56,993 bases of DNA from Treponemataceae bacterium (GTDB taxonomy: Bacteria; Spirochaetota; Spirochaetia; Treponematales; Treponemataceae), in NCBI GenBank assembly GCA_051651645.1, contig JBOFSR010000016.1, forward strand, positions 1 through 56,993. Direction: 5' to 3'. The notes beneath the pieces were generated by a model. That model was not told the DNA's origin, searched no databases, and saw nothing but the letters and a program-made list of their open reading frames with translations. The position numbers and the translations under genes are program-made. Shown here piece by piece: positions 15,063-34,061 of the stretch (position 1 is the stretch's first letter; each line of letters opens with the position of its first letter).

Positions 15063-16823
15063 ATGACAAATGACGAAATTATCCAACGGGCAAATGAGTA
15101 CATTGCTCAAGAGCAAGATGCGTTTTTTAGATCTGAGGTTGAAGCTTTGCTTTCAAAAAAAGATTTTGCCGAGCTTGAAGACAGGTTTTATCAAAATCTT
15201 GAATTTGGGACAGGCGGATTGCGAGGCATTATTGCAGGTGGATCAAATCGGATGAATACGTCTGTTATAAACAAGGCGACTCAAGGACTTGCAACATATA
15301 TTATTAAAACTTTTCCCCAAAAGGCTCAAAAAGGCGAGCTAAAGGCGGTTGTTGCGTATGATTCACGACGATTTTCTGATGTTTTTGCACAGGCGACTGC
15401 GTTAATTTTTGCCGCAAATGGATTTACCGTTTATTTATTTTCAAGCTTGCGCCCAACTCCAGAGCTTTCTTTTGCCATTCGTGAGCTTTCTTGTGATACA
15501 GGCGTTGTTGTTACGGCTTCTCATAATCCTCCGCAGTACAACGGTTATAAGGCGTATTGGAATGATGGGGCACAAGTTACGCCGCCGCATGATGAGGGCA
15601 TAATTGCAGAGGTCAATATGGTTTCTGCGGTGAAAACTATTTCAAAAGGGGACGCTCTTAGTTCTGGAAAGCTTCATGTAATCGATAAAGAAATTGATGA
15701 AAAATATTGGAATATGGTAAAGGCACAACTTTTTAGACCGCAGTTGATAGCATCAAGCGCAAAGGATATAAAAGTTGTTTTTACGCCCTTGCATGGAACT
15801 GGTGCAATGCATGTTGAAAAAGTTTTGGGTGATTTGGGCTTAAAGGTCATTACTGTTCCCGAGCAAAAAGAGCCGAATGGTGATTTTCCGACGGTGAGTT
15901 ACCCCAATCCTGAGGAAGCTGCTGCCTTAAAAATGGCGATTGAGCTTGCCCAAAAAGAAAAGGCTGACGTCGTTATGGCAACGGATCCTGACGCTGATCG
16001 ATTTGGAAGTGCAGTCCCCGATCAAAATGGAAACTATGTTTTGATTAGCGGCAATCAAATGGGTGTTTTGCTAACTGATTATATCTTGCTTTCACGTAAA
16101 GAGTTAGGAAAAATCCCTTCGAATGCGGGAATTATTCGTTCAATTGTAACCACAACAATGGTTGACAGAATTTGCAAAGCGTATAACGTTCACTTGGAGG
16201 AATGCCTCACAGGTTTTAAATGGATTGCTGCTGCCACTGCTGAGTTTGAGAAAACTGGCAGGGCGTATATTTTTGGGTTTGAGGAAAGTTATGGCTACAC
16301 TGTTGAAAAAGAAATTCGCGATAAAGACGGAGTTTCTGCTGCGGCGATGTGTGCTGAAATGACTTTGTATTGGCGCTCAAAGGGAAAAACGCTTTTGAAT
16401 CGATTAGAAGAGCTTTTTACGGAATTTGGCTACTATGAAGACAGGGCAATTTCAAAAACTTTTACGGGATCCTCTGGAACTCAAACAATGAAAAATATTA
16501 TGGCAAAGTTGCGCTCCGATGGTTTGAAAATGCTTGGCGGAAAAAAAGTTGTGCAAATTCGTGATGTGGGCGAAAGCGTTTGTTTTGATCCGCATAATCC
16601 TGCTAAAAAAGAAAGCATTAGTCTTCCCAAAAGCAATGTTTTGCAATTTTATCTTGAAGACGGAACAACGGTGAGTGCTCGCCCTAGTGGAACAGAGCCA
16701 AAAATTAAATTTTATGTTAATTGCGTTGTGGACGTAAAAACGGATGTGCAAAGTGCAAAAAAAGAGGCGTGCGTATTTTGCGATAAAATTGTGCAAGAAA
16801 TAAATGACGTTTTGAACGTTTAA
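15063..16823 (+). CDS. Phospho-sugar mutase (phosphoglucomutase/phosphomannomutase family)
   Basis: 586 aa with the active-site loop TASHNPPQYNGYK, the Mg site DPDADR and the sugar-binding GFEESYG block. Confidence 0.9.
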   Translation: MTNDEIIQRANEYIAQEQDAFFRSEVEALLSKKDFAELEDRFYQNLEFGTGGLRGIIAGGSNRMNTSVINKATQGLATYIIKTFPQKAQKGELKAVVAYDSRRFSDVFAQATALIFAANGFTVYLFSSLRPTPELSFAIRELSCDTGVVVTASHNPPQYNGYKAYWNDGAQVTPPHDEGIIAEVNMVSAVKTISKGDALSSGKLHVIDKEIDEKYWNMVKAQLFRPQLIASSAKDIKVVFTPLHGTGAMHVEKVLGDLGLKVITVPEQKEPNGDFPTVSYPNPEEAAALKMAIELAQKEKADVVMATDPDADRFGSAVPDQNGNYVLISGNQMGVLLTDYILLSRKELGKIPSNAGIIRSIVTTTMVDRICKAYNVHLEECLTGFKWIAAATAEFEKTGRAYIFGFEESYGYTVEKEIRDKDGVSAAAMCAEMTLYWRSKGKTLLNRLEELFTEFGYYEDRAISKTFTGSSGTQTMKNIMAKLRSDGLKMLGGKKVVQIRDVGESVCFDPHNPAKKESISLPKSNVLQFYLEDGTTVSARPSGTEPKIKFYVNCVVDVKTDVQSAKKEACVFCDKIVQEINDVLNV

Positions 16824-18455: not shown

Positions 18456-19115
18456 TTACATTGCACCTTTTCGCTTAATTACGTAGGTGACTGTTTTGAA
18501 TAGAATATCGATATCAAGGGAAAAGCATTTATTGATAGCGTAATACAAATCCATTGCAACGCGTTTTTCATAAGTTGTTTCACTCCTGCCATTCGCTTGC
18601 CAGTAGCCTGTTAAACCAGGGCGCCGCTCAAAAATTGCGTTGAAATATTTGCCGTATCGTTCAATTTCAGCCTTAACTATGGGACGATGCCCCACCAAAC
18701 TCATATCGCCTTTTATGACATTCCATAACTGAGGAAGTTCATCTAAACTAGTTTTTCGTAAAAAATCACCAATTCGAGTAATTCGTGGATCATTTTCTAG
18801 CTTAAATTTTTTTGCAAATTCAGCTTTTTGCACAGGATTGAAATTATTAAAAACCTCATCGGCATTATAAACCATTGTACGAAATTTATAAATTTTAAAT
18901 ACTTTTCCGTTTCTTCCAATGCGATTTTGCGAAAATACAACTTTTCCTTTTGAGTCAAGTTTGATACAAATTGCGAGCAAAATAAATACGGGCAAAAAAA
19001 AATAAAAAGCACAAAATGCTGCAGAAAAATCAAAAGCTCTTTTAAAAAATAAATAGGTTCGGTGATTTTTCTTGTTGATTTCAATGCCGTCGATTGAAGT
19101 AAAATCTTTTTCCAT
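18456..19115 (-). CDS. Small monotopic phosphoglycosyl transferase (bacterial sugar transferase, PglC/WbaP C-terminal type)
   Basis: 219 aa with one re-entrant hydrophobic helix and the motifs KFRTM, DPRIT..G.FLRKTSLDELPQLWNVIKGDMSLVGHRP. Confidence 0.85.
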   Translation of the reverse strand: MEKDFTSIDGIEINKKNHRTYLFFKRAFDFSAAFCAFYFFLPVFILLAICIKLDSKGKVVFSQNRIGRNGKVFKIYKFRTMVYNADEVFNNFNPVQKAEFAKKFKLENDPRITRIGDFLRKTSLDELPQLWNVIKGDMSLVGHRPIVKAEIERYGKYFNAIFERRPGLTGYWQANGRSETTYEKRVAMDLYYAINKCFSLDIDILFKTVTYVIKRKGAM

Positions 19116-20617: not shown

Positions 20618-21724
20618 TTAGTGTTTTTGTAAAATGAACAAGTATTCGCGCACGTGAATATTTCTGTTTGTAAGATTTCTGCTCCCTCGAAAGGTATTGT
20701 ATTTTATATCGATTATGGTAAGTTTGCCGTATTTTTTTAGCATGGTGGTCATTTGCTCAAAGCTGATAAAACCCTCTGAATTATACGAAAGAATTAAAAA
20801 CTTGGCATCAAGTGAGCTGACAATGCTTTCTAATGAATTGAGGGCTTTTTGCTTTTTGTTAAAGTTTGAGCGATTCCAGTCTTGTGTAATGCCGCTTACA
20901 TCGCTTATTGCAACGTCAAGCTTGTTTTTCAAAATTAAATTGAGCATAAAATAGTTTGATCCGTAGGGGTGCTGATTGTAAGGCGGGTCTAAGTACGCAA
21001 TATCGATATTTTTGAGTTTGGAGCAAAGAGATTCAGCGTCATCTTCATATATTTCTAACTCGCTTTCAAAATTGCTAAAAACAGGCTCGCTCAAGGTTAC
21101 AGAGCCAACAATGCGAGAGAGGGCATTTTTGGCAGCGCCACCAAAGCAGCCAATCCCCGTATTTTTGTCCTTATAAAATCCCTTAAATACGCCACTTGTG
21201 TTTACGTGGATAGAGGCCTCAGTGATTAGAGGAGCTAAGAAAAATTTGCGTAAGTCGCTTTCTTGGATAATTTCATCTATTAAATGGCGATAGGTATCAA
21301 TTAAAAGGGCATTTTCTCTTGTGTAAAAAACTCGCTCTTTTTTTTTAATGTGATGATCATCTTTTGGAGCATAATGCGTACAAATTATGCCTTCTTTTTT
21401 GTTATCTTTGCAAAGTTGGATAATTTTTTGTCGATATTCGTTGCAAATATCAGCAGGATAGTCTTTTTTATTAATCAAGTAGCAACTATTTATCATTTTT
21501 GAATAATTTTCTAAATCATTTACAATCAGAATCTTGCTATGTTTTTTTAGCATTCGTGCAACAACGCCAGATCCAGAAAACATGTCAGCACAAATAAGAT
21601 TTTTTGCCTGTAACAGCTTTTTAATTCGCTCAACTTCAGGCTCAATTTTTTCTATTAAAAGCCGTTTGTTGCCTAAGTACGTAATGAGCTGCGTTGTATA
21701 AAATTCTTTGTTTTCAGTGATCAT
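20618..21724 (-). CDS. Site-specific DNA N6-adenine methyltransferase (alpha-type motif order, D12/Dam-like class)
   Basis: 368 aa. YLGNKRLL, then the AdoMet motif I DMFSGSG near the N-terminus, and the catalytic motif IV DPPY (AYLDPPYN) in the C-terminal half. Confidence 0.8.
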   Translation of the reverse strand: MITENKEFYTTQLITYLGNKRLLIEKIEPEVERIKKLLQAKNLICADMFSGSGVVARMLKKHSKILIVNDLENYSKMINSCYLINKKDYPADICNEYRQKIIQLCKDNKKEGIICTHYAPKDDHHIKKKERVFYTRENALLIDTYRHLIDEIIQESDLRKFFLAPLITEASIHVNTSGVFKGFYKDKNTGIGCFGGAAKNALSRIVGSVTLSEPVFSNFESELEIYEDDAESLCSKLKNIDIAYLDPPYNQHPYGSNYFMLNLILKNKLDVAISDVSGITQDWNRSNFNKKQKALNSLESIVSSLDAKFLILSYNSEGFISFEQMTTMLKKYGKLTIIDIKYNTFRGSRNLTNRNIHVREYLFILQKH

Positions 21725-23224: not shown

Positions 23225-25318
23225 TCACATAATAAATTTTTGTTTCATTTTTGCAAGGATTTCAAGTGCTTGCTCTGTGTCGAGTGCTTGCTCTGGTTCA
23301 TGATATTCAACAAGGCCTGCAGGAATTTCGTCTAAAAATGGAGAAGGAGCGCATTCAACTACGGATTGCATTTTTTTTCGTTTGCGACACGATGAAATAA
23401 AAAGTTTATCACGGGCTCGAGTAATTGCTACGTAAAAAAGCCGCCGCTCTTCTTCAACATTGCCGTCGCCTTCTTCCATACTTCGTGCGTGCGGAATAAT
23501 TCCCTCTTCGCAACCCACAATAAACACCACAGGAAACTCCAAGCCTTTTGACGCGTGAATTGTCATTAAATTGACCTTGCCTTTTGATCCGTCATCGTCC
23601 ATATCATCACGTGAAAGAAGCGTAATGCGATTAAGATAATCGTACAGCCCTGTTTTCGAGTTGTCGGGATCATTTTCCCATGTTTCCATAGATTGAAGCA
23701 AACTCTCTATGTTCAAAAACTTATATCGAGCAGCCTTCTCGTTCTTTTGGTATTCTGTGATAAGATAATCAGAATAGTTGATTTCATCAATAAGCGTGCG
23801 AACTTTTTTTGCAAGTCCCTTGCCATGCAACATTGCATGACGATGCTTGAGAATAAAGCTGGCAAAGCCCTCAAGCTCAGTTTTCATTTTATCGCTTAGA
23901 ATATCGCTTGCCCGAATGTGCGTAAAGCGTGAAAAATGCTCATCGTCAAGGAGGGGCACGTCCGCATTTTCATCCTCAAAGAGCGAGATGCTTTTATTTT
24001 TGCGACTTGCAAGAAGCGTTGCATTGATGGCAACCCAAAGCGAACAATTATTTTTTGTCGCCACCGCAGAAATATCCTCAAGGGTTTTTCGCCCAATGCC
24101 ACGACGCGGTGTATTGATGATGCGTAGGAGGTTTATGTCGTCATCGTGATTTGCACAAACACGAAGATAACTAATCACATCTTTGATTTCTTTGCGCTGA
24201 AAAAAGCTCGTTCCGCCGCTCATCGTGTAGGGAATGTTATATTCCAAAAAGGATTCTTCGATTGCACGGCTTAAATTATTTGCTCGCAATAAAACGCCGA
24301 AATCATCATAGCGACGATTTTCGCCCATGCGAATGCTCTGAATCATCTCGCACACAAACTCCGCCTCAGCATTTTCATCATCAGGCATATAAATTTCAAT
24401 CGGCTTGCCACTGCCGTTTCCAGACCATAAAGCCTTGTCTTTTCGGTTGGTATTGTTGGAAATGACGCCATTTGCCGCAGCTAAAATTGTTTCCGTCGAG
24501 CGATAATTTTGCTCGAGGCGAATCTCTTTTACATTGGGAAAATCCCTCTCAAACATGCGGATATTTTCGTAATTTGCCCCACGCCATGAATAAATTGACT
24601 GATCATCATCGCCTACAACGCTCACATTTTTGTCGGCAATTAAATGCATAAACTCATATTGCTGCATACTCGTGTCTTGAAACTCATCAACCATGATGTA
24701 TTTATAGCGGGAGCGATATTTTTCTAAAACCTCAGGATGTTCCTTAAAAAGCTTGATGGGCAAGGTGATTAAATCATCAAAATCAACGGCGTTATAGATT
24801 TTTAAGCCTCGTTGATATTCTTCGTACAGCTGACGATACTGATCATTTGAACTTTCCCAGTTCCAGCGACCAATTTTTATGTTTGAAAACAAACTTCCCA
24901 CCGCATACACATCGAGGGCATCGGAGGTAAAGCCCAGCTCCCTTCCCGTTTCTTTTATCAGTTGATTGCGATCGGTTTCATCATAAATACTAAAGTTTTG
25001 CCGCCAACCAAGCTTATCAATGTCGGCTCGAAGAATTTTTACGCCAAAAGCGTGAAAAGTTGAAATCGTAAGATTTTGCAACTTTTTTTGCGTGAGCTCT
25101 TTAATGCGCTCCTCCATTTCTCGGGCAGCTTTGTTCGTAAAGGTGAGCGAGAGAATTTGACTTTGCGGAATGCCTTGCTCGAGCATGTAGGCAATGCGAA
25201 AAGTGATAACGCGCGTCTTGCCACTGCCTGCTCCTGCAATAATAAGAATCGCACCGTCGATAGTGGTCACAACTTCAAGTTGCTTGTCGTTAAGTTCAGC
25301 TTTGTAATTTATATTCAT
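23225..25318 (-). CDS. ATP-dependent DNA helicase, UvrD/PcrA/Rep family
   Basis: 697 aa. Walker A AGAGSGKTRV, motif II VDEFQDTS, and the QNYRS, VGDDDQSIYSWRGA and C-terminal TIHASKGLEFP blocks. Its ATG overlaps the stop of the upstream gene (ATGA). Confidence 0.9.
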   Translation of the reverse strand: MNINYKAELNDKQLEVVTTIDGAILIIAGAGSGKTRVITFRIAYMLEQGIPQSQILSLTFTNKAAREMEERIKELTQKKLQNLTISTFHAFGVKILRADIDKLGWRQNFSIYDETDRNQLIKETGRELGFTSDALDVYAVGSLFSNIKIGRWNWESSNDQYRQLYEEYQRGLKIYNAVDFDDLITLPIKLFKEHPEVLEKYRSRYKYIMVDEFQDTSMQQYEFMHLIADKNVSVVGDDDQSIYSWRGANYENIRMFERDFPNVKEIRLEQNYRSTETILAAANGVISNNTNRKDKALWSGNGSGKPIEIYMPDDENAEAEFVCEMIQSIRMGENRRYDDFGVLLRANNLSRAIEESFLEYNIPYTMSGGTSFFQRKEIKDVISYLRVCANHDDDINLLRIINTPRRGIGRKTLEDISAVATKNNCSLWVAINATLLASRKNKSISLFEDENADVPLLDDEHFSRFTHIRASDILSDKMKTELEGFASFILKHRHAMLHGKGLAKKVRTLIDEINYSDYLITEYQKNEKAARYKFLNIESLLQSMETWENDPDNSKTGLYDYLNRITLLSRDDMDDDGSKGKVNLMTIHASKGLEFPVVFIVGCEEGIIPHARSMEEGDGNVEEERRLFYVAITRARDKLFISSCRKRKKMQSVVECAPSPFLDEIPAGLVEYHEPEQALDTEQALEILAKMKQKFIM

Positions 25319-28179
25319 TTATTTGTTTGCTTCCAGTTTTTTTCATCCCACATATCTCCTTCAACCTCGTATGTTGTGTATAAGTATTTTTTTCGAGGAT
25401 GACGGGGAAAGCTAGCGTGAACAGAAGATAAATGTTGTCGAATATCTTTATTTGGGACATCTTCTTGTTCAAAAATATCTTTTTTTATTAGATAATAAGC
25501 ATCAGCACTTGTCATTGGATCAGTATTTATATCGAATGATTTTATTGAATTAAAATCCTTAAAAAAAAGAATAGAAAAAGGTTTACCTGGTACGTTAAGA
25601 GGAAAATCATACCCTGCTATTTTTTCTGCAATTCCATCATGATCTGAAGCAATTACAATTTTTGTGTTATCATAAATACCATTATTTTTGAGCCAATCAA
25701 TATATTCTGCAAGATATTTCATTATGTGTTCTGCTGTATAAAGTTGAAGCTGCTCTTGGTCTGTAGTAACCAGTTCATTTTCTTTTAGATTCCAAGGAAA
25801 GTGAGAAAGCATACTATAAAAAAATTTAAAAGTCTGTTTTTCTGCATTTATATTTGCAAATTCGGTATTCATTTTTAGCATGGCAAGATCTTTATACGTG
25901 GTATTATTGGTGTTAATACTTTTTGCACTTCCAAGCCACGTTCCATTTTGATAAATATAAGATCGTAAAAAATGTGGTACAATATTGAAAAGAGAGACTG
26001 ATAAAAAAAAGGGATGATATTTGAGTATTTTTGATTGCTCATTACTGGAACTGAAATCCTTGTAAAAAGATGAGAGTTTAGGGTTTAGGTTAAGTAAAAG
26101 CACATTTTTTTTATCTTTGATTTTGCTATAAAAATAGTTGCTACCCATAAAAGCACCTTGATCAGGATAGTTAAGTGCAACTGAAAAACCTTTTTTGGAG
26201 AATAGGTTAGGCAGTTGAGTGAATGCGTTATTTACTTCGGTGCGAAGAGATTTATTTTTTTTATTTATATTTTGTGGTGTATAATCATATCCACCATATA
26301 TTGAAGGTAATGACAGAACAGTGTTTTCTCCAATTGAAGTTGTGTTTTTATACCATGTAAAACCAGTAAATTTTTCTTTAAGTTCTGGATTTCGATCAAA
26401 AACAACAGGAATATCACGGCTATCAAACATATCAAAAATAAAATACACAATATTCTCTTTTGTTGGATGATACGCAAAGAAGTCGTGGATCTTTTTTTCA
26501 TCATTATTAAGTTGCTCTTGAAGAGCTTTGTCTTGATTAGTGATTACTAGTATGTTAAAGAAAGTAAGAAAAGACAGCGATATAAATAAAATTGATAATC
26601 CTGAAAAAACAAACTGAGTTAATCTGAAGTAAAAAATAGTTGTAAAAAAAATGCTTACAGTAAAAAAAATAAAAATATCGTTTATAAAAGCATTTGGCGA
26701 AAAAAAGTAATTTGTATTTGAAAGAAGAGTAAAATCTAAGGTTCCATAATTCCCTTTGAATATGAATAAGCAAGTTAGGAAAAATATTAAGACTGTGAAT
26801 AAAATAAAGGTCGTTATATTACGAATGAAAGTGCTAGAAAGTTGCCATAATAAGCATATGCACGTAAGGCCTATTATTGCAAAGGGGAAAATTTTTGAGC
26901 AAATTGCCAAAATAGATTCATCAAAATATGAAGGATCAGATTTGTATATAGTTACTGTAGTAAAGAAAAAAAATAAAATGGTCAATAATCCTGTGGTAAG
27001 GAAAAAAGTTTGTGTTGATTTGTTTTGAAAAAAAGATTGGAGAAACTTGTTGAGTTGCTGCTTTCGAAAGATAAAAAATACTGTTGAAAACAGGCCAAAA
27101 AAAATATAAATATATAGAAAAAGGTGGGTAGTTGTTAAAAAAAGAATGCTACGCGTTTCAATTAAATGAATATAAATTATTGCTACAGGGATCCATAAAA
27201 AAAGCAAATATCCTATTTGTATGATTGTTTTTGAAATATTTTGGTTGTTTTTTAAAATAAAAATTAATGATGTAATAATGATTGCAAGTATAAGTGCGAT
27301 AAAAATGCTATCTGGCATGACTACCGATGTTGAAGCTTTTCCCCAGTCGGTAAGGGATTGCTTTAGTAAAAAGGCTGACAAAAAAACTGTGTAAAGGCAG
27401 GTTAATCCACCACTAATTAGAATGATTTTAATGATTTTTTCAGCGATTAAAGGCAGTTTAAAAGGCAGATTTAATATCTTCGTAAGATTCTTTTTTCTAT
27501 CGATGGATTTAATTTCTTTTTCACCTAATTTTACTCTAACAATTAAATTCTGTACAAAAAAGATGAGATTATTTGTTGTCCAAAAGAAGAGTAAGGCACT
27601 GGGGGCGGAATACAAAAGCCATAAAAATCCACCTGCGATGATAAAGGCTTGAGTGCGGTCTTTTATGCTTAGCTTTGGGATGATGAGCGTGGTACAAATA
27701 TTTATTGCCGTCATTAAAAAGGGCAAAAAGTTTACTCCCCCGAGCAAACCATCAGGCTTGCTTAAATCGCTGGTAAATAGAAAGCTTTGTCCTTTAAGGG
27801 CTGTGAAGTTGCTAATCATATAGTAGGCACCGAGCAAGAAGGGGAGTTGCAAAATCACGCCAAAGGCACTGCGAATAGCTAAAAATGGATGGTATCGATA
27901 TTTTTTATACAGATTACTCGTTCGTAGTTGTCGTTTTGAGCCGTCGGTTTCTTCGGCTTTGATTTTGTCAAGCTTTGGTTTGATCAGGGCAGAGAGTTGT
28001 TTTTCTTTATGCTGAGCTTTTACGGCAAGTCGTCCAAGTGGAAGATAGCCAATCGCTGCAAGGCACGAAAGTACAATCAGACCAACGCCGTAATTGCCTG
28101 TAATTGTGTAGCATAGGCTGTAAACAAAATGATATATCAATTCCAACGGATAAATAAACATTGCGTATAACGGATTCAT
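25315..28179 (-). CDS. Fusion protein, copy C: YidC/Oxa1-like 5-TM core + polytopic region + LtaS/EptA-like alkaline-phosphatase-superfamily ectodomain
   Basis: 954 aa. Residues 1-215 align by eye to the YidC core (GNYG...YLPL, QLPFLLGAYYMI, DLSKPD, PSALLFFWTTNNLIFFVQN). Residues ~235-545 contain about 9 hydrophobic segments. The C-terminal domain carries IFDMFDS, the T620 motif NTVLSLPSIYGGY and ASDHDG (25633..25650). Confidence 0.8.
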   Translation of the reverse strand: MNPLYAMFIYPLELIYHFVYSLCYTITGNYGVGLIVLSCLAAIGYLPLGRLAVKAQHKEKQLSALIKPKLDKIKAEETDGSKRQLRTSNLYKKYRYHPFLAIRSAFGVILQLPFLLGAYYMISNFTALKGQSFLFTSDLSKPDGLLGGVNFLPFLMTAINICTTLIIPKLSIKDRTQAFIIAGGFLWLLYSAPSALLFFWTTNNLIFFVQNLIVRVKLGEKEIKSIDRKKNLTKILNLPFKLPLIAEKIIKIILISGGLTCLYTVFLSAFLLKQSLTDWGKASTSVVMPDSIFIALILAIIITSLIFILKNNQNISKTIIQIGYLLFLWIPVAIIYIHLIETRSILFLTTTHLFLYIYIFFGLFSTVFFIFRKQQLNKFLQSFFQNKSTQTFFLTTGLLTILFFFFTTVTIYKSDPSYFDESILAICSKIFPFAIIGLTCICLLWQLSSTFIRNITTFILFTVLIFFLTCLFIFKGNYGTLDFTLLSNTNYFFSPNAFINDIFIFFTVSIFFTTIFYFRLTQFVFSGLSILFISLSFLTFFNILVITNQDKALQEQLNNDEKKIHDFFAYHPTKENIVYFIFDMFDSRDIPVVFDRNPELKEKFTGFTWYKNTTSIGENTVLSLPSIYGGYDYTPQNINKKNKSLRTEVNNAFTQLPNLFSKKGFSVALNYPDQGAFMGSNYFYSKIKDKKNVLLLNLNPKLSSFYKDFSSSNEQSKILKYHPFFLSVSLFNIVPHFLRSYIYQNGTWLGSAKSINTNNTTYKDLAMLKMNTEFANINAEKQTFKFFYSMLSHFPWNLKENELVTTDQEQLQLYTAEHIMKYLAEYIDWLKNNGIYDNTKIVIASDHDGIAEKIAGYDFPLNVPGKPFSILFFKDFNSIKSFDINTDPMTSADAYYLIKKDIFEQEDVPNKDIRQHLSSVHASFPRHPRKKYLYTTYEVEGDMWDEKNWKQTNK

Positions 28180-28220
28180 AACCTAAGACTACCAGCATTA
28201 CTAAAAAAAATCAATGAGTT
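27516..28220 (-). repeat. Conserved head repeat, copy C (promoter + first ~220 codons)
   Basis: About 0.7 kb, nearly identical at nucleotide level to 30456..31161 and 33411..34096. Confidence 0.85.
28186..28214 (-). promoter_or_regulatory. Putative promoter of copy C with leaderless geometry
   Basis: On the minus strand TTGATT, 17 nt (starting with a T-run), TAGTCT, 6 nt, ATG. The same geometry is present in all three copies. Confidence 0.35.
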
Positions 28221-28234
28221 GTCATAAAGCGAAA

Positions 28235-31120
28235 TCACTTCACTTCTTCAACTAATTTCCAATTTTCTTTGGTGAACATGGTGCCTTCAACCTCATATGA
28301 TTTACAATAAGTATTTCCTTGCGTGTGATTTTTGAAATTCCAATCACATAAAAAATGTTGTCGTTTTTCTTTTGAGTTATTGTTGTCCGAAAAAAAATCT
28401 TTTCGTGCCAAGTAATAGGTATCAGCATTTGTCATTAATTCTTGAGAAATTTTTAATTTTCCCAGTTCCTTAAAATCTTTTACCAGAAGTAGAGCATGTG
28501 GCCTTCCTTGAATAGGGCTTTGACTAAAGGTTGTTAATTCTTGGGGGATTTCGTTCCAAAATGTTTTTAATAGCATTTGACTGTCAAAGGAACAATGATC
28601 AGAGGCAATTATTATTCGAGTATTGTCATAAATATTTAAATTTTTTAAGTCTTCAATATAATTAATCATCATATGTAAAATATGCTCTTCGGTAAATAAG
28701 TGTTCAGGGACAATTCCGTTAATCCGCACTTCTTGTCCTTTTGTTTGAGGATAAGGATCTTTGACAATTTTTAAATTATTTTCTTCTAAATGCCAGCTGA
28801 TGTGAGAAAGTTCATTATAGTGAATTTTTAGAGTTGGTGTTTTTGCTGAATCAATTAATTTTTCTTGAAATAGTTTAAATTTTGCAATATTGACAGCTGT
28901 AGTAACGTTTGATACAGCTGATTTAACTAAATCAAGCCAATTTCCATTGTCATATATAAAATAGCGTATTATATGTGGTGTAATGTTGAATAATGAAAGA
29001 ATAAGAAAATATGATTCAAGCTTTTGGGAAAAACTTGTTGATTGAATATAATCTTGGTAAAATGATGAATAAATGGGATTAACTTCTGCTAATAAGATAT
29101 TTTCTTTGTTTTTTATATTTTTATAAAAAAATTCTACCCCCATAAAGTCAGAGGGATTATTTAGTGATACAAAAAAACCTTTTTCTGCAAAGCTTTCGGG
29201 CAATTTTGTATAAGACTGATTTGCTTCCTCAAAAATATTGCCTCGCTCAAGCATTTTGTTATGCGTGTAGTCATACCCAGCGTACATAGAGGGTGCACTT
29301 GATAGAGTTGCTTGACTGGCGGCAAGGGTATCAGGATACCACGTAAAACCATCTAAGCCATCCCAAAAGTTTGGGTTTCTCTCCAATAACTGCTCCATGT
29401 GTCCGCCAGTAAACATATCAAAAATAAAAATGAGAATATTGGGTTCTGTTTTGCTTAATCCGTAATATTGATCAAAGTTGATATCGTTACTCGACGTAAA
29501 ATTTTGGCTTATATTATCTTTTTTTATACCCTTTATTATAGAGTATGTAGTCATGAAGCTTATAGAGACAAAAAAGAATATGAAAACTAAAATTATCTTA
29601 TCAATAATTTTATGGAAAAGCGAATAAATGACTATAATCCATGCAATGGAAAAACAGAGCACATCAAATAAAATATTTTTTGGAATATAAAACTTAGGGT
29701 TTGACAAAAGTATTAAATCCAATGCCCCATAGTTCCCTTTAAAAACAAAGAAATATAATAAGGACGTTGTTGTTACAAAAAAGAATATTGTTAAAAAACA
29801 GTATTTTGCAAGCGGCGGTAAAATAACATATAAGCCGATTAAAAAAAACAAAAAACATACCAAAAAAGGAAGGATTTTTGCAAGAGCAGAAAAAATGCTG
29901 TAGGAAAAATAGCTTGAATCTGACTCGTATAATAACGCAATGTTATAAACAAAAAAAATTGTGATAAAAACAAGCAGGCATGAAATGAATAATTGGTGAG
30001 ATGTTTTTTTGAAAATATCTGTTAATTTGATTTTTAGTTTTTCTAAATCTTGTGTTAATAAAAAAATTAAAGCATTAGTGATAAAAAGTATTGAATAAAA
30101 AAGAAAATTCCAACGACGAAATATAAAAAGACGATTTGTTTTGATAATAAAAATACATAAAAATAAGGCTGGAAGTAATATTAAAAATATTTTAAGTGAC
30201 TTGTGTAGTTGAAGCTTTAAACTTGGATTATTTTTTCGTATTTTTGAAATAGCGTAAGTTATAATCCATACAGAAAATAATAAAATAATAAAATCAGGAA
30301 TAAGAGGGAGGTATCCAAAATCGAAATTATCGCGTTGAAAATAGAAAAAACTTTTTAGTGTTAAAACAAGTATATATATAGAATAAAAAAGAATTCCAAT
30401 TAAAATAGTTTTAATCCCTTGTGTTTGGACAAGCTTAAATTGATAAAAAGAAGACTCTTTTTCACCTAATTTTATTCTAGTAATCAAATTCTGTACCAAA
30501 AAGATGAGATTGTTTGTTGTCCAAAAGAATAGTAAAGCACTGGGGGCAGAATATAAAAGCCATAAAAATCCGCCTGCAATGATAAAGGCTTGGGTGCGGT
30601 CTTTTATGCTTAGTTTTGGGGTGATGAGCGTCGTGCAAATATTTATTGCCGTCATCAAAAAGGGCAAAAAGTTTACGCCCCCTAATAATCCATCAGGCTT
30701 GCTTAAATCGCTGATGAATAGAAAATTTTGTCCCTCAAGGGCTGTAAAGTTGCTAATCATATAGTAGGCTCCGAGCAAGAAGGGGAGCTGCAAAATCACA
30801 CCAAAGGCACTGCGGATAGCTAAAAATGGATGATAGCGATATTTTTTATATAGATTGCTCGTTCGTAATTGTCGCTTTGAGCCGTCGGTTTCTTCGGTTT
30901 TGATTTTGTCAAGCTTTGGTTTGAGTAAGGCGGAGAGTTGTTTTTCTTTGTGTTGAGCTTTTACGGCAAGCCGGCCAAGAGGAAGATAGCCAATCGCTGC
31001 AAGGCAAGAAAGGACAATCAGCCCAACGCCGTAATTGCCTGTAATTGTGTAGCATAGGCTGTAAATAAAATGGTATATCAATTCCAACGGATAAATAAAC
31101 ATTGCGTATAACGGATTCAT
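28235..31120 (-). CDS. Fusion protein, copy B: YidC/Oxa1-like core + polytopic region + LtaS/EptA-like ectodomain
   Basis: 961 aa with the same architecture. The ectodomain motifs are IFDMFTGGH, ATLSSAPSMYAGY and ASDHCS. Confidence 0.8.
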   Translation of the reverse strand: MNPLYAMFIYPLELIYHFIYSLCYTITGNYGVGLIVLSCLAAIGYLPLGRLAVKAQHKEKQLSALLKPKLDKIKTEETDGSKRQLRTSNLYKKYRYHPFLAIRSAFGVILQLPFLLGAYYMISNFTALEGQNFLFISDLSKPDGLLGGVNFLPFLMTAINICTTLITPKLSIKDRTQAFIIAGGFLWLLYSAPSALLFFWTTNNLIFLVQNLITRIKLGEKESSFYQFKLVQTQGIKTILIGILFYSIYILVLTLKSFFYFQRDNFDFGYLPLIPDFIILLFSVWIITYAISKIRKNNPSLKLQLHKSLKIFLILLPALFLCIFIIKTNRLFIFRRWNFLFYSILFITNALIFLLTQDLEKLKIKLTDIFKKTSHQLFISCLLVFITIFFVYNIALLYESDSSYFSYSIFSALAKILPFLVCFLFFLIGLYVILPPLAKYCFLTIFFFVTTTSLLYFFVFKGNYGALDLILLSNPKFYIPKNILFDVLCFSIAWIIVIYSLFHKIIDKIILVFIFFFVSISFMTTYSIIKGIKKDNISQNFTSSNDINFDQYYGLSKTEPNILIFIFDMFTGGHMEQLLERNPNFWDGLDGFTWYPDTLAASQATLSSAPSMYAGYDYTHNKMLERGNIFEEANQSYTKLPESFAEKGFFVSLNNPSDFMGVEFFYKNIKNKENILLAEVNPIYSSFYQDYIQSTSFSQKLESYFLILSLFNITPHIIRYFIYDNGNWLDLVKSAVSNVTTAVNIAKFKLFQEKLIDSAKTPTLKIHYNELSHISWHLEENNLKIVKDPYPQTKGQEVRINGIVPEHLFTEEHILHMMINYIEDLKNLNIYDNTRIIIASDHCSFDSQMLLKTFWNEIPQELTTFSQSPIQGRPHALLLVKDFKELGKLKISQELMTNADTYYLARKDFFSDNNNSKEKRQHFLCDWNFKNHTQGNTYCKSYEVEGTMFTKENWKLVEEVK

Positions 31121-31161
31121 AACGTAAGACTACCAGTATTGCTAAAAAAAATCAATGAGTT
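30456..31161 (-). repeat. Conserved head repeat, copy B
   Basis: Nearly identical to the copy C and copy A heads. Its upstream end overlaps the last codons of copy A. Confidence 0.85.
31127..31155 (-). promoter_or_regulatory. Putative promoter of copy B (leaderless geometry), overlapping the 3' end of copy A
   Basis: TTGATT (31155..31150), 17 nt, TAGTCT (31132..31127), TACGTT, ATG. No AGG or GGAG lies upstream of the ATG. Confidence 0.35.
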
Positions 31162-34061
31162 TTCTTTTTGATACCCTCACTTAAATCCCAGTTTTTTAAA
31201 TTAAACATTGAGCCTTTTACTGCAAACTTTTGATATGAAAATTTTTTTTCATTCCTGCTTGGGGCAATGGTATCTGCGACATAGTGATAGCGGATAGAAT
31301 TATCTTGTTTCTGTTCGGGAAAAATATCTTTTTGAGCCAAGTAATATGTATCTGCTGTTGTCATTAGGTCAGTAGAAATTTCTAATTTACCTTGCGTATT
31401 AAAATCCTTAAATAGTAGAAGCCCATGTGGACGGCCAGGATATACTTGCTCCGTATACAGCTCAGCTACAGGGCTTATATTTCCGCCAAGTTTTTTTTGT
31501 AACATTACACTATCTGCCCAGCAGTGGTCAGAAGTAATAATGATCTTTGTATTATTATAAACGCCAAGCTGTTTTAGTTTTTCAATATATTCTACTGCAA
31601 AGTTTATTATATGCTCTTCTGTATAAAGATGTGATGGCACAATACCATTTATGGTTGTCCAGTCACTCGTTTTTGTAGGATTTTGTACAATTTTTAACTC
31701 TTTTTCTTTCAAATAGAAAGGAACATGGGATAATTCATTATAATGAATTTTTAGAGTTGGCTTTTGTCTTGTTGTGTTAGCTTGCTCTGCAAACATTTTT
31801 ATGGAAGATATTTTTTGTAGTGTTTGAGTGATTGTATTTACATCTTTTGTGATACCAAGCCATTTTCCTTGATTGTATAAATAATGCTTCATTGTATGTG
31901 GTATTATGCTGAATGCTGAGGTCGTTAAAAACAAAGCCGTTGAATTATTACTAATAGTTTCCATAAACAGATATTCTTTGTAAAACTGAGATAAAGATAT
32001 ATCAGGATCTAGCAGCAAAACATTATCTGGTTTAGCAATTTTTTTGTAGAAAAAAGCATCGTCTAAAAAATATGCAGGCGTGTTGAGAGTAACTTCAAAA
32101 TCTATGTCGCTAAATTGATTAGGGAGCTCTGTATATGCGGCATTGATTTCCTTTATGAGAAAATTTTTTCGGCTGTTTATAGCTTCTGGAGTATAATTAT
32201 ATCCACCATAGATAGATGGAAGACTTGTTGCTGTATATTGACTCAGTGCAACGGTATCAGGATACCACGTAAAACCATCTAAGTCATTCCAAAAGTTTGA
32301 GTTTCTCTCTAGCAGTTCTTCCATGTGTCCGCCAGTAAACATGTCAAAAATAAAAATGATTACATTTGGTTCTGTTTTACTAAGTCCATAATACTGTTCG
32401 AGCAATTTCTCTGTTTGTTCATCTGTGACGACTTCTGTTGTTGGAGTGGTTTTCTTTTTTTGCGGTATGCTTACAAACGTCGTTATGACAATCGTTGCTA
32501 CAAGAAATAAAAGAGCTGCATTGTTATATTTTTCTATCATCTTATATTTGTAAAGCAGTACAAGAGTAGTACTTGCTATAAAAAAAGCAATCATATCCAT
32601 TGCAAACTGATTAAGTGTAAAAAATACAGGATTTGATAAGAGGTTTAAATCTAATGCACCATAATTTCCCTTAAAAATAAAGAGATTAAGTAAGCTCAAA
32701 AAAAGGCTAAAAATAACCACGCTAGTTGTAATATATTTCCAGTACTGATTAAGAAAATAATAAATTAAAGTGATGCATCCAAAACACACGAGTGCTAGGG
32801 GGAATATTTTACTGTATGCGGTAAAAAGACTATCGGTAAAGTAGCTTGCATCAGATTTATAAAACATCGCAACATGATAAAAAAAGAATAGAATAAAAAG
32901 TATTGCAAGGCTCGTAAAAAAAGGTTTATGTGTTTTTTTGTGAAAAATAGTATTAAAAAAGGCTGTTATTTTTTTTGTATCAATTGAAATAAGAATGAGA
33001 AAAAAATTTGTCAAAAAAATAAGTGTATAAAGCCCATAGTTTATTGCACCCATGAGTAACAATTTATCATTTTTTACAAGGTGTCTAAAAAAGTAGAAGC
33101 TTGGAGTCCACAGCATCAAGACGGATATAATTTTAACGCTTGCAAAAAAAATCTTATTATGTGATTTTGTTTGTATAATAATTTTCCAAACTGCCCAAAA
33201 GGTTATGCAAATAGATATATAAGCTAAGGCGATTTCGATAGATAGGTTAAGTATAAAAGGCTTTAATACGATTTCTTTGAGCTCCATGTATTTTTTTATA
33301 TAAATAAATGTTGTATACAATCCGTAAATAGACGTAGTCGCTAAAATTGCTTGATTCCATCGTGAGAGTGTTAATTTAACTGGGGGCGTTGTAGGCTCGT
33401 TGTTTTTAGTTTTTATTCTAGCAATTAAATTTTGTACTAAAAAGATGAGATTATTTGTTGTCCAAAAAAATAGTAAGGCACTGGGGGCGGAATACAAAAG
33501 CCACAAAAATCCTCCTGCGATGATAAAGGCTTGTGTGCGGTCTTTTATGCTTAGTTTTGGGGTGGTGAGCGTGGTACAAATATTTATTGCCGTCATTAAA
33601 AACGGTAAAAAGTTTACGCCTCCTAATAATCCATCAGGCTTGTTTAAATCGCTGATGAACAGAAAGCTTTGTCCCTCAAGGGCAGTAAAGTTGCTAATCA
33701 TATAGTAGGCACCGAGTAAGAAGGGGAGTTGTAAAATCACGCCAAAGGCACTACGGATAGCTAAAAATGGATGATAACGATATTTTTTGTATAGATTGCT
33801 CGTTCGTAATTGCCGTTTTGAGCCGTCGGTTTCTTCGGCTTTGATTTTGTCAAGCTTTGGTTTGAGTAAGGCCGAGAGTTGTTTTTCTTTGTGCTGAGCT
33901 TTTAAGGCAAGTCGTCCTAGCGGAAGATAGCCAATTGCGGCAAGGCACGAAAGTACAATCAGACCAACGCCGTAATTGCCTGTAATTGTGTAGCATAGGC
34001 TGTAAACAAAATGATAAACCAATTCCAACGGATAAATAAACATTGCGTATAACGGATTCAT
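31152..34061 (-). CDS. Fusion protein, copy A: YidC/Oxa1-like core + polytopic region + LtaS/EptA-like ectodomain
   Basis: 969 aa with the same architecture. The ectodomain motifs are IFDMFTGGH, YTATSLPSIYGGY and TSDHCW. Confidence 0.8.
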   Translation of the reverse strand: MNPLYAMFIYPLELVYHFVYSLCYTITGNYGVGLIVLSCLAAIGYLPLGRLALKAQHKEKQLSALLKPKLDKIKAEETDGSKRQLRTSNLYKKYRYHPFLAIRSAFGVILQLPFLLGAYYMISNFTALEGQSFLFISDLNKPDGLLGGVNFLPFLMTAINICTTLTTPKLSIKDRTQAFIIAGGFLWLLYSAPSALLFFWTTNNLIFLVQNLIARIKTKNNEPTTPPVKLTLSRWNQAILATTSIYGLYTTFIYIKKYMELKEIVLKPFILNLSIEIALAYISICITFWAVWKIIIQTKSHNKIFFASVKIISVLMLWTPSFYFFRHLVKNDKLLLMGAINYGLYTLIFLTNFFLILISIDTKKITAFFNTIFHKKTHKPFFTSLAILFILFFFYHVAMFYKSDASYFTDSLFTAYSKIFPLALVCFGCITLIYYFLNQYWKYITTSVVIFSLFLSLLNLFIFKGNYGALDLNLLSNPVFFTLNQFAMDMIAFFIASTTLVLLYKYKMIEKYNNAALLFLVATIVITTFVSIPQKKKTTPTTEVVTDEQTEKLLEQYYGLSKTEPNVIIFIFDMFTGGHMEELLERNSNFWNDLDGFTWYPDTVALSQYTATSLPSIYGGYNYTPEAINSRKNFLIKEINAAYTELPNQFSDIDFEVTLNTPAYFLDDAFFYKKIAKPDNVLLLDPDISLSQFYKEYLFMETISNNSTALFLTTSAFSIIPHTMKHYLYNQGKWLGITKDVNTITQTLQKISSIKMFAEQANTTRQKPTLKIHYNELSHVPFYLKEKELKIVQNPTKTSDWTTINGIVPSHLYTEEHIINFAVEYIEKLKQLGVYNNTKIIITSDHCWADSVMLQKKLGGNISPVAELYTEQVYPGRPHGLLLFKDFNTQGKLEISTDLMTTADTYYLAQKDIFPEQKQDNSIRYHYVADTIAPSRNEKKFSYQKFAVKGSMFNLKNWDLSEGIKKKTH

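Follow-up and report, generated by a model that had tools for sequence, protein, structure and literature searches.

A 56,993-nt (57 kb) stretch of DNA from a Treponemataceae bacterium (contig JBOFSR010000016.1), referred to here as the window, contains three consecutive minus-strand open reading frames (ORFs) that share one unusual architecture. Each of these genes, ORFs A, B and C, encodes a YidC-like head followed by nine transmembrane (TM) helices and an LtaS-like ectodomain of the alkaline phosphatase (AP) superfamily. A preliminary description of this DNA had reported three such genes on the minus strand, and the coordinates and lengths it gave (969, 961 and 954 aa) are all exact. The gaps between the genes measure 31 and 55 nt. 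The three fusions and their parts are as follows.

31152..34061, minus strand: ORF A, 969 aa, YidC-like head, nine TM helices and LtaS-like AP-superfamily ectodomain (ORF list; PF02096, 72.2 bits)
33417..34061, minus strand: head of ORF A (aa 1-215), a five-TM YidC/Oxa1 core with a basic cytoplasmic C1 hairpin (PF02096, alignment)
32427..33359, minus strand: nine-TM middle domain of ORF A (aa ~235-545; hydropathy)
31155..32399, minus strand: ectodomain of ORF A (aa ~555-969), with D573, T610, H779 and D845-H846
28235..31120, minus strand: ORF B, 961 aa, architecture as ORF A (ORF list; PF02096, 75.3 bits)
30476..31120, minus strand: head of ORF B (aa 1-215), with 94-98% protein identity and 89-93% DNA identity to the heads of ORFs A and C
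29516..30418, minus strand: nine-TM middle domain of ORF B (aa ~235-535; hydropathy)
28238..29470, minus strand: ectodomain of ORF B (aa ~551-961), with D568, T605, H773 and D841-H842
25315..28179, minus strand: ORF C, 954 aa, architecture as ORF A (PF02096, 72.4 bits; PF00884, 33.9 bits; structure model; Foldseek)
27535..28179, minus strand: head of ORF C (aa 1-215), whose model matches YidC structures 3wo7_A and 6al2_B
26539..27450, minus strand: nine-TM middle domain of ORF C (aa ~244-547; hydropathy and structure model)
25318..26484, minus strand: ectodomain of ORF C (aa ~566-954), with D583, T620, H793 and D846-H847 (T620 codon at 26320-26322; D846-H847 codons at 25639-25644)

The heads belong to the YidC/Oxa1 superfamily. 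The Pfam profile PF02096 (60KD_IMP) matches aa 30-214/215 of each ORF with 72-75 bits (gathering score 35), and the match spans profile positions 1-161/162 of 163 in all three. We built an AlphaFold2 (AF2) model of ORF C from a 70-sequence family alignment (mean pLDDT 82; about 90 in the head, high over aa 390-954 and low over aa 222-380), and for its head a Foldseek search of the Protein Data Bank (PDB) recovered Bacillus halodurans YidC (3wo7_A; 217 columns, rmsd 4.0, TM-score 0.65 relative to the target) as well as Escherichia coli YidC (6al2_B). The head shares with YidC/Oxa1/Alb3 proteins (BhYidC2, 3WO6/3WO7; E. coli, 3WVF/6AL2) the order of the five TM helices, the N-terminal amphipathic helix and the basic C1 coiled-coil, but it lacks the P1 domain, TM1 and the lipoprotein signal. 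Polar residues of the groove are retained: S38, Q111 and N203, invariant or nearly so among 70 family members, align to T362, Q429 and N521 of E. coli YidC, and the ORF A head keeps S38, R103 and Q111. The groove arginine (R72 in BhYidC2, R366 in E. coli YidC) is instead Ala42 in the window heads, and across the same 70 proteins this column is mainly F, S, T, N, A or Y, with neither Arg nor Lys among the common residues. The family has in its place a near-invariant arginine, R103 (66/70), at the cytoplasmic start of the second core TM helix. Only YidC models are listed by NCBIfam for the window proteins, and every one falls below its curated cut-off; the heads score 68-71 bits against TIGR03592 (yidC_oxa1_cterm; cut-off 84.3) and lie far under the cut-offs of the YidC equivalog models. 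The preliminary description had called this region a full five-TM insertase core, a label that stands for the fold and the Pfam assignment but needs qualifying, given the replaced arginine and the missed TIGR03592 cut-off. Heads from different phyla match one another at 100-350 bits, whereas canonical YidCs reach only about 50 bits and so rank well behind the family members of other phyla, which places the heads in a clade of their own. No second 60KD_IMP gene besides the trio is present in the 57-kb window.

In one canonical, housekeeping-type YidC of 622 aa that carries PF14849 (P0079), the groove position also appears by eye to lack Arg or Lys (…TLIFYSIFFPIRW…), so the loss of this residue is not unique to the fusion family.

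Behind the head, hydropathy and the AF2 model both give nine TM helices, in agreement with the nine or so hydrophobic segments noted earlier, for a total of 14. Lysine and arginine residues on the loops are distributed 25 to 5 between the predicted inside and outside, which indicates an N-out/C-out protein with its C-terminal domain of about 400 aa on the outer side of the membrane. A periplasmic loop with the motif K-G-N-Y-G-x-L-D (ORF C aa 475-482) is conserved. A separate AF2 model of this middle region (aa 226-575, pLDDT 78) had no Foldseek match in the PDB below E 0.1, and the TM-only model retrieved neither MCR-1, EptA nor PbgA.

The preliminary description had assigned the C-terminal domain to the AP superfamily on the basis of short motifs. 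These motifs are kept in all three ORFs, each of which retains the IFDMF Asp, the T-x-x-S-x-P Thr, the His and the SDH Asp-His, and both Foldseek and PDB profiles place the domain in this superfamily. For the C-terminal domain of ORF C, Foldseek recovered 3lxq, LtaS (2w5r/4uoo), MCR-1, PbgA and sulfatases. The expected PF00884 (Sulfatase) match was obtained above threshold for ORF C (33.9 bits against a gathering score of 25), whereas the ectodomains of ORFs A and B gave no Pfam match at E<=1. A profile hidden Markov model (HMM) of the family ectodomain recognizes all three at 318-326 bits; the family HMMs for head, TM domain and ectodomain score 293, 127 and 318 bits on ORF A and 294, 107 and 324 bits on ORF B. 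In the 70-member alignment the catalytic columns are close to fixed: D in 69/70, T in 60 and S in the other 10, H in 70/70 and DH in 70/70. The domain is an outward-facing AP-superfamily transferase that is apparently catalytically competent.

Although the ectodomain had been described as LtaS/EptA-like, it is nearer to LtaS by sequence, with LtaS the best solved relative in a PDB profile search (E 2.5e-12, against 8e-8 for MCR-1). The features shared with LtaS/LtaP (2W5Q, 4UOO) are a polytopic anchor followed by an extracytoplasmic AP-superfamily domain, a Thr nucleophile, the N-H-(Y/F)-P histidine (H793 of ORF C), a G/S-D-H metal site (D846-H847, aligned to G-D-H-Y-G of LtaS) and an intervening helix ending in L-K-x-x-G-(L/I)-Y-D-N. 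In contrast to LtaS, with its five-TM anchor, the fusions have 14 TM helices (five in the head plus nine) and their first metal ligand is Asp rather than Glu. The Thr-x-x-S-x-P nucleophile motif is in common with EptA/MCR-1/BcsG and PbgA/YejM, which transfer from a lipid donor in the periplasm, and the Foldseek alignments to full-length MCR-1 (9nww) and PbgA (6xlp) cover 603 and 689 columns, more than the soluble domain. The sequence relation to EptA/MCR-1 is nevertheless weaker than that to LtaS, and the EptA N-terminal Pfam domain has no match in the ORFs.

Head and tail of these proteins have had different histories. In the window trio, protein identity over the first ~215 residues is 94-98%, and the DNA that encodes them agrees to 89-93%; identity drops to 16-60% immediately past the head junction, and the paralogous tails as a whole are 26-48% identical. 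When two orthologues from other metagenome-assembled genomes (MAGs) are included, the five heads are 95-98% identical, the TM domains 26-91% and the ectodomains 38-72%. Compared with its orthologue from another Treponemataceae MAG (P0002), ORF C has 95% identity over the head, 57% over the TM domain and 72% over the ectodomain. ORF A and an orthologue from another Treponemataceae MAG (P0004) form a mosaic, with 97% identity in the head, 91% in the TM domain and 58% in the ectodomain, a pattern that suggests an ectodomain that was exchanged or is evolving much faster than the rest of the protein. The contrast extends to an unrelated pair (P0006 and P0007), at 84% in the head against 35% and 37% in the TM domain and ectodomain. 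Among the heads, dN is about 0.02 and dS 0.33-0.58, for an omega of 0.04-0.07, and dS is lower between paralogues (0.33-0.39) than between ORF C and its orthologue (0.58). The low omega together with the lower paralogue dS indicates strong purifying selection plus some homogenization of the heads. Recent gene conversion as the sole cause of the identical heads is ruled out, as heads from other MAGs are equally conserved and dS reaches 0.33-0.58.

At the DNA level the heads amount to three direct repeats of ~645 bp, 89-93% identical and spaced ~2.9 kb apart. Such repeats are a ready substrate for unequal recombination, copy-number change and the formation of head/tail chimeras.

The same architecture is widespread. 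A word-indexed search with ORF C returned ~75 full-length homologues (750-1080 aa), all with PF02096 and with or without PF00884, from Treponemataceae, Selenomonadaceae, Clostridiales, Succinivibrio and one Vibrio isolate. A scan of GTDB species-representative genomes using an 18-sequence alignment confirmed 116 stretches in at least 10 phyla. Carriers include Spirochaetota (among them the complete genome of Treponema sp. HNW), Synergistota (Fretibacterium fastidiosum, Pyramidobacter), Desulfovibrionaceae (Desulfovibrio piger ATCC 29098), Planctomycetota, Verrucomicrobiota, Victivallales, Akkermansia, Cloacimonadota, Bacteroidales, Negativicutes, Oscillospiraceae, Gastranaerophilales, Proteobacteria and Vibrio. 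In an exhaustive HMMER search, a profile built from the tails of the window trio, with the head excluded, matched 800 cluster representatives (50% identity) at E<=1e-30; among the best 148 of these 800, a full head was present in 102, a partial head in 2 and no head in 44. Shorter relatives with a five-TM tail also exist. A frameshift or assembly artefact at the head-tail junctions is ruled out by the three intact copies and the ~75 independently assembled full-length homologues.

The preliminary description knew of no described family with this fusion. Literature searches on YidC with sulfatase, LtaS, phosphonate or AP-superfamily fusions, and on transferases of CMP-aminoethylphosphonate, likewise returned nothing on the architecture, nor any description of an arginine-less head, of the TagF-like partner or of the link to phosphonate or phosphoramidate cassettes set out below. 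In public databases, on the other hand, the architecture is common across many phyla under a generic name, and all homologues that bear a name go by ‘YidC/Oxa1 family membrane protein insertase’ and nothing more. The two superfamilies are themselves well known; what appears to be new is the fusion, the arginine-less head, the obligate-looking TagF-like partner and the link to the cassettes.

We assessed the genes that recur beside the family by clustering neighbours over 85 non-redundant loci, with the ten largest clusters (0-9) annotated. The most frequent is a gene with PF04464 (Glyphos_transf), the TagB/TagF class of CDP-alcohol phosphotransferases, found in 59/85 loci. Members of this group directly adjoin the fusion on the same strand in 58 cases, and a TagF-like gene lies immediately upstream of 44 of the 70 head-bearing genes with enough flanking sequence. 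Most distances between the TagF-like stop and the start of the head fall in the range of -4 to +12 nt, and in many cases the two codons overlap. Examples, with positions in the respective family locus, are the following.

L006, 6730-8004: TagF-like gene (PF04464)
L014, 3887-5191: TagF-like gene (PF04464)
L037, 6757-7998: TagF-like gene (PF04464)
L023, 6534-7964: TagF-like gene (PF04464)

The neighbour is kept at most of the other spirochaete loci (e.g., L037, from Treponema sp. HNW, and L080). Classical TagB/TagF enzymes are peripheral rather than embedded in the membrane. The TagF-like partners, in contrast, nearly always carry an N-terminal hydrophobic segment (45/47), and a turn with the motif A-Y-L-D-P-G-(T/S)-G connects two such segments in 35-38 of 39, a hairpin from which we take these proteins to be membrane-embedded.

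Two kinds of biosynthetic cassette also recur. The first is of phosphonate type and comprises a CTP-transferase/phosphoenolpyruvate (PEP) mutase fusion (CTP_transf-PEP_mutase, 19 loci), the thiamine pyrophosphate-dependent decarboxylase Ppd (17 loci) and an iron-dependent alcohol dehydrogenase (Fe-ADH, 11 loci). A neighbouring PEP mutase scores 417 bits on TIGR02320, above the cut-off, and the best NCBIfam model for a neighbouring dehydrogenase is the phosphonate-cluster Fe-ADH. The second cassette combines a PEP-utilizing protein of ~600-1000 aa (NF004508/PRK05849), a class-I glutamine amidotransferase (GATase) whose top NCBIfam match, below the cut-off, is gamma-glutamyl-CDP-amidate hydrolase, and a nucleotidyltransferase (NTP-transferase); among its carriers is Vibrio sp. 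HN007 (L003), in which the three cassette genes, the TagF-like gene and the fusion make up a five-gene operon. It lies beside the pair of TagF-like and YidC-like genes at these loci.

L003, 4235-9994: PEP-utilizer, class-I GATase and NTP-transferase cassette
L007, 3472-7989: the same cassette
L034, 894-7977: the same cassette
L089, 8408-14214: the same cassette

We presume that this second domain set resembles Cj1418/Cj1417/Cj1416 of the Campylobacter O-methyl-phosphoramidate pathway, which we treat as a lead and not as a finding. By domain content it may serve phosphoramidate-type decoration in Vibrio, Alphaproteobacteria and other taxa. The first cassette is, by domain content, the cytidylyl-activated phosphonate tailoring pathway of Rice et al. 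(PMC6697681). That study does not describe the later steps of the pathway, and mentions only LicD-like transferases and glycosyltransferases. The sole trace that we found in the literature is the remark of Li and Horsman (PMC8942020) that Selenomonas phosphonate clusters ‘encode multiple sulfatases’, which comes with no further analysis. The neighbour cassettes match by domain content both the C. jejuni O-methyl-phosphoramidate genes (Cj1416-Cj1418) and PntC-Ppm (PMC6697681), but neither published pathway includes a YidC-like or AP-superfamily component.

ABC transporter genes among the neighbours are of importer type (ATPase in 12 loci, BPD_transp_1 permease in 8, SBP_bac_6 binding protein in 5), and no other recurring flippase family is present among the annotated clusters 0-9. 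GtrA/GtrB/GT-C and ArnC/ArnEF/ArnT domains are likewise absent from the ORFs and from the ten largest neighbour clusters.

In some loci the fusion is split into a head-only gene and headless genes for the TM and Sulfatase regions.

L034, 7989-8657 and 13186-16619: split fusion
L080, 6492-9359: split fusion
L088, 949-3892: split fusion
L089, 6001-10179: split fusion

The standalone heads are 219-232 aa long (229-232 in L080 and L088, 219-222 in L034 and L089). A headless tail gene directly follows the head gene in L080 and L088, while in L034 and L089 the tail genes lie 1.3-4.5 kb, or two to five genes, away. A TagF-like gene directly precedes the standalone head in L034, L080 and L089, overlapping it in L089; the L088 head gene follows a truncated, unannotated upstream ORF. 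The standalone head of L089 passes TIGR03592 (92.3 against 84.3 bits). The tail is usually, but not always, the fused partner of the head.

Taken together, we consider it plausible, with the balance of probability close to even yet not tipping in its favor, that the fusion is a surface-decoration enzyme within a three-part pathway, in which the head provides a scramblase-type path to the fused transferase. The data show the architecture, the topology signals, the conservation of catalytic residues, synteny, gene overlap, the split forms and the pattern of conservation; which donor and acceptor are used, what the head does and how the steps are ordered we infer. Enzymes of the TagF type depend on nucleotide-activated donors and must work on the cytoplasmic side, whereas domains of the LtaS and EptA type work outside, with a group drawn from a lipid. 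The simplest scheme to accommodate all parts is to load a lipid, cross the bilayer and transfer by the ectodomain, through a phospho- or phosphono-Thr intermediate. In the first step, a cytoplasmic cassette would make a cytidylyl-activated phosphonate (CTP-transferase/PEP-mutase, Ppd, and Fe-ADH or an aminotransferase) or, alternatively, a phosphoramidate-like or phospho-alcohol group (PEP-utilizer kinase, class-I GATase and NTP-transferase). The hairpin-anchored TagF-like transferase would then load this group onto a membrane lipid in the inner leaflet. In the third step the YidC-like head, together with the TagF-like enzyme, most likely offers its groove as a path to the outer leaflet and would deliver the lipid-linked group to the fused transferase. 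Each gene encodes a 14-TM inner-membrane enzyme, N-out/C-out, with an extracytoplasmic LtaS-like domain that probably uses a metal-activated Thr (T610/T605/T620). This Thr would accept the phosphoryl- or phosphonyl-linked head group of the lipid-linked donor as a covalent intermediate and hand it on to a glycolipid, a glycan, a protein or another acceptor in the envelope.

The head is the obvious candidate for the crossing step because purified E. coli YidC scrambles glycerophospholipids in vitro (PMC11047089), because no other candidate flippase family recurs among the annotated neighbour clusters and because the groove arginine is lost. Loss of this mid-membrane arginine would, in our own reasoning, favor the passage of an anionic head group. 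It is possible, though we would lean against assuming it, that an Oxa1-superfamily module has been recruited as the dedicated trans-bilayer conduit of an unrecognized three-component phosphonate/phosphoramidate pathway, with tandem paralogues of homogenized head providing several acceptor specificities.

The logic of such a pathway has precedents. In GtrA/GtrB/GtrX, CsbB/GtcA/YfhO and ArnC/ArnEF/ArnT, a cytoplasmic-face synthase that makes a lipid-linked donor works with a small flipping membrane protein and a polytopic transferase that acts outward. The first two parts are conserved in these systems, and the third is variable and sets specificity. The likeness is in logic only, with no part homologous: the proposed transfer is of phosphoryl or phosphonyl rather than glycosyl groups (TagF-like plus AP-superfamily enzymes), and the part proposed to flip the lipid is an Oxa1-fold module that most often forms one protein with the transferase. 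By analogy with GtrA/GtrB and GtrX of O-antigen glucosylation, the near-identical heads and divergent tails of the window trio would correspond to one shared donor and three acceptors. This agrees with one of three functional hypotheses raised earlier, that three tails give three specificities; the other two gave the head the role of a built-in insertase or of a substrate path, and none of the three is proven. The family context is a better fit to a substrate path or partner module than to an insertase for the protein’s own tail.

The GacH/SccH glycerol-phosphate transferases of streptococcal rhamnose polysaccharides offer another comparison and have an anchor with many TM helices. Like the proposed enzymes they use an LtaS-like ectodomain to decorate a surface glycan and not to polymerize (10.1101/337519) but, compared by description, they have no YidC-like module or TagF-like partner and their donor is phosphatidylglycerol. 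The family context here likewise sets the fusions apart from LtaS, as it points to cytidylyl-activated phosphonate- or phosphoramidate-type groups and not to phosphatidylglycerol, and from YidC, as an AP-superfamily transferase and a TagF-like enzyme accompany the head, whether by fusion or as paired partners.

Several points weigh against a scramblase-type role for the head. LtaS- and EptA-type enzymes normally use bulk phospholipids and require no dedicated flippase. The nine-TM domain could be the lipid path itself. Apart from the arginine, nothing that marks a working insertase is missing from the head, which has both the C1 hairpin and the polar groove, and the loss of the arginine is tolerated in E. 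coli YidC and seemingly shared by canonical P0079. Identity between heads covaries with that between TagF-like partners (Spearman 0.76, against 0.21 for the ectodomain), but this contrast is not robust, as nearest-neighbour agreement is 23/39 against 22/39 and less saturated pairs give 0.66 against 0.62. Finally, no TagF-like gene and no phosphonate or phosphoramidate cassette occurs in the 57-kb window or at the closest orthologue locus (L004), so the partner and donor of the trio itself are unobserved.

The foremost alternative, which we regard as unlikely but worth serious consideration, is that the head moves no lipid and is a built-in insertase or chaperone for the nine-TM tail in cis, for the procoat-like hairpin of the TagF-like partner, or for both. 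The YidC fold, the PF02096 match above threshold, the basic C1 hairpin and the L089 head that passes TIGR03592 are all as this explanation would have them, and the head is under the strong purifying selection that a conserved, demanding mechanism would entail. The TagF-like N-terminus, moreover, consists of two hydrophobic helices around a short acidic loop, the classic type of YidC-only substrate. Yet Gram-positive YidCs rely on the groove arginine for substrates with an acidic loop, and this residue is not among the common ones at its position in the family; an ectodomain of ~400 aa, for its part, needs Sec and not YidC. No bacterium is known to lack a housekeeping YidC, which handles far more complex proteins, and this leaves an insertase dedicated to a single class of enzymes, in more than 10 phyla, without a rationale. 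Headless tails (44/148) also argue against it, with a head-only gene found nearby where the flank sufficed (L088 and L089); this arrangement suggests a stoichiometric partnership rather than catalysis of insertion.

Such a partnership could also be purely structural. The head might be a passive Oxa1-fold scaffold that docks the TagF-like hairpin to the transferase, with the nine-TM domain or a general flippase moving the substrate. The TagF-like and head genes overlap or abut, the pair persists where the tail is separate, the hairpin motif is conserved, and the paralogous heads are as hyper-conserved as would be expected if they bound one partner. We nonetheless find a mere scaffold improbable, as it leaves the retained polar groove residues S38, Q111 and N203 unexplained and as the window trio has no adjacent partner. 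Least probable of all is that the three enzymes here act alone in the manner of LtaS, OpgB or GacH, using glycerol-phosphate or phosphoethanolamine from bulk phospholipids to decorate or polymerize an envelope glycolipid, with the head a leftover: the absence of a TagF-like gene or donor cassette from the window and L004, the LtaS enzymes as best solved relatives of the ectodomain, and the diacylglycerol-anchored, lipoteichoic acid-like outer-membrane glycolipids that treponemes carry would all suit it, but a leftover domain would not stay 95-98% identical with an omega of 0.04-0.07, most other spirochaete loci keep the TagF-like neighbour, and the view of this genome is limited to 57 kb.

Should the pathway with a lipid-conducting head be correct, it would represent the first physiological, substrate-dedicated lipid-flipping role of a YidC-family protein and would fill in the ‘last step’ that the tailoring of bacterial surfaces with phosphonate still lacks. 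What follows once CMP-phosphonate has formed is as yet undescribed, and the family is a candidate route by which phosphonate, and possibly phosphoramidate, reaches the surface. Proteins of the YidC family are seen as universal protein insertases. The in vitro lipid scrambling by YidC (PMC11047089), demonstrated recently, has no assigned physiological role, and a widespread arginine-less paralogue that is joined to a lipid-dependent phosphotransferase and shares its operon with a membrane TagF-like enzyme makes the question directly testable. Carriers occur among gut, oral and rumen bacteria, and the cultured ones (Desulfovibrio piger ATCC 29098, Fretibacterium fastidiosum, Treponema sp. HNW and Vibrio sp. 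HN007) make the family experimentally accessible. In the meantime, the annotation as a membrane protein insertase is misleading, and counts of YidC paralogues or of AP-superfamily surface enzymes that rely on it would err.

In the window itself, no envelope-polymer or donor genes adjoin the trio, and the surroundings are otherwise housekeeping apart from a phosphoglycosyl transferase and a sugar-phosphate mutase. These two genes and a DNA methyltransferase lie 4-10 kb from the trio, with no evident link to it. The immediate neighbours of the trio are, to one side, a radical-SAM gene and acetate kinase and, to the other, a UvrD-like helicase.

15063-16823, plus strand: PGM/PMM-family mutase
18456-19115, minus strand: Bac_transf phosphoglycosyl transferase
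20618-21724, minus strand: D12-class N6-adenine DNA methyltransferase
23225-25318, minus strand: UvrD/PcrA-like helicase, whose start lies 4 nt inside the end of ORF C (25315-25318)

The radical-SAM gene lies 78 nt upstream of the trio. With the short gaps within the trio and the helicase overlap, the arrangement looks like one long minus-strand operon of envelope and DNA-repair genes.

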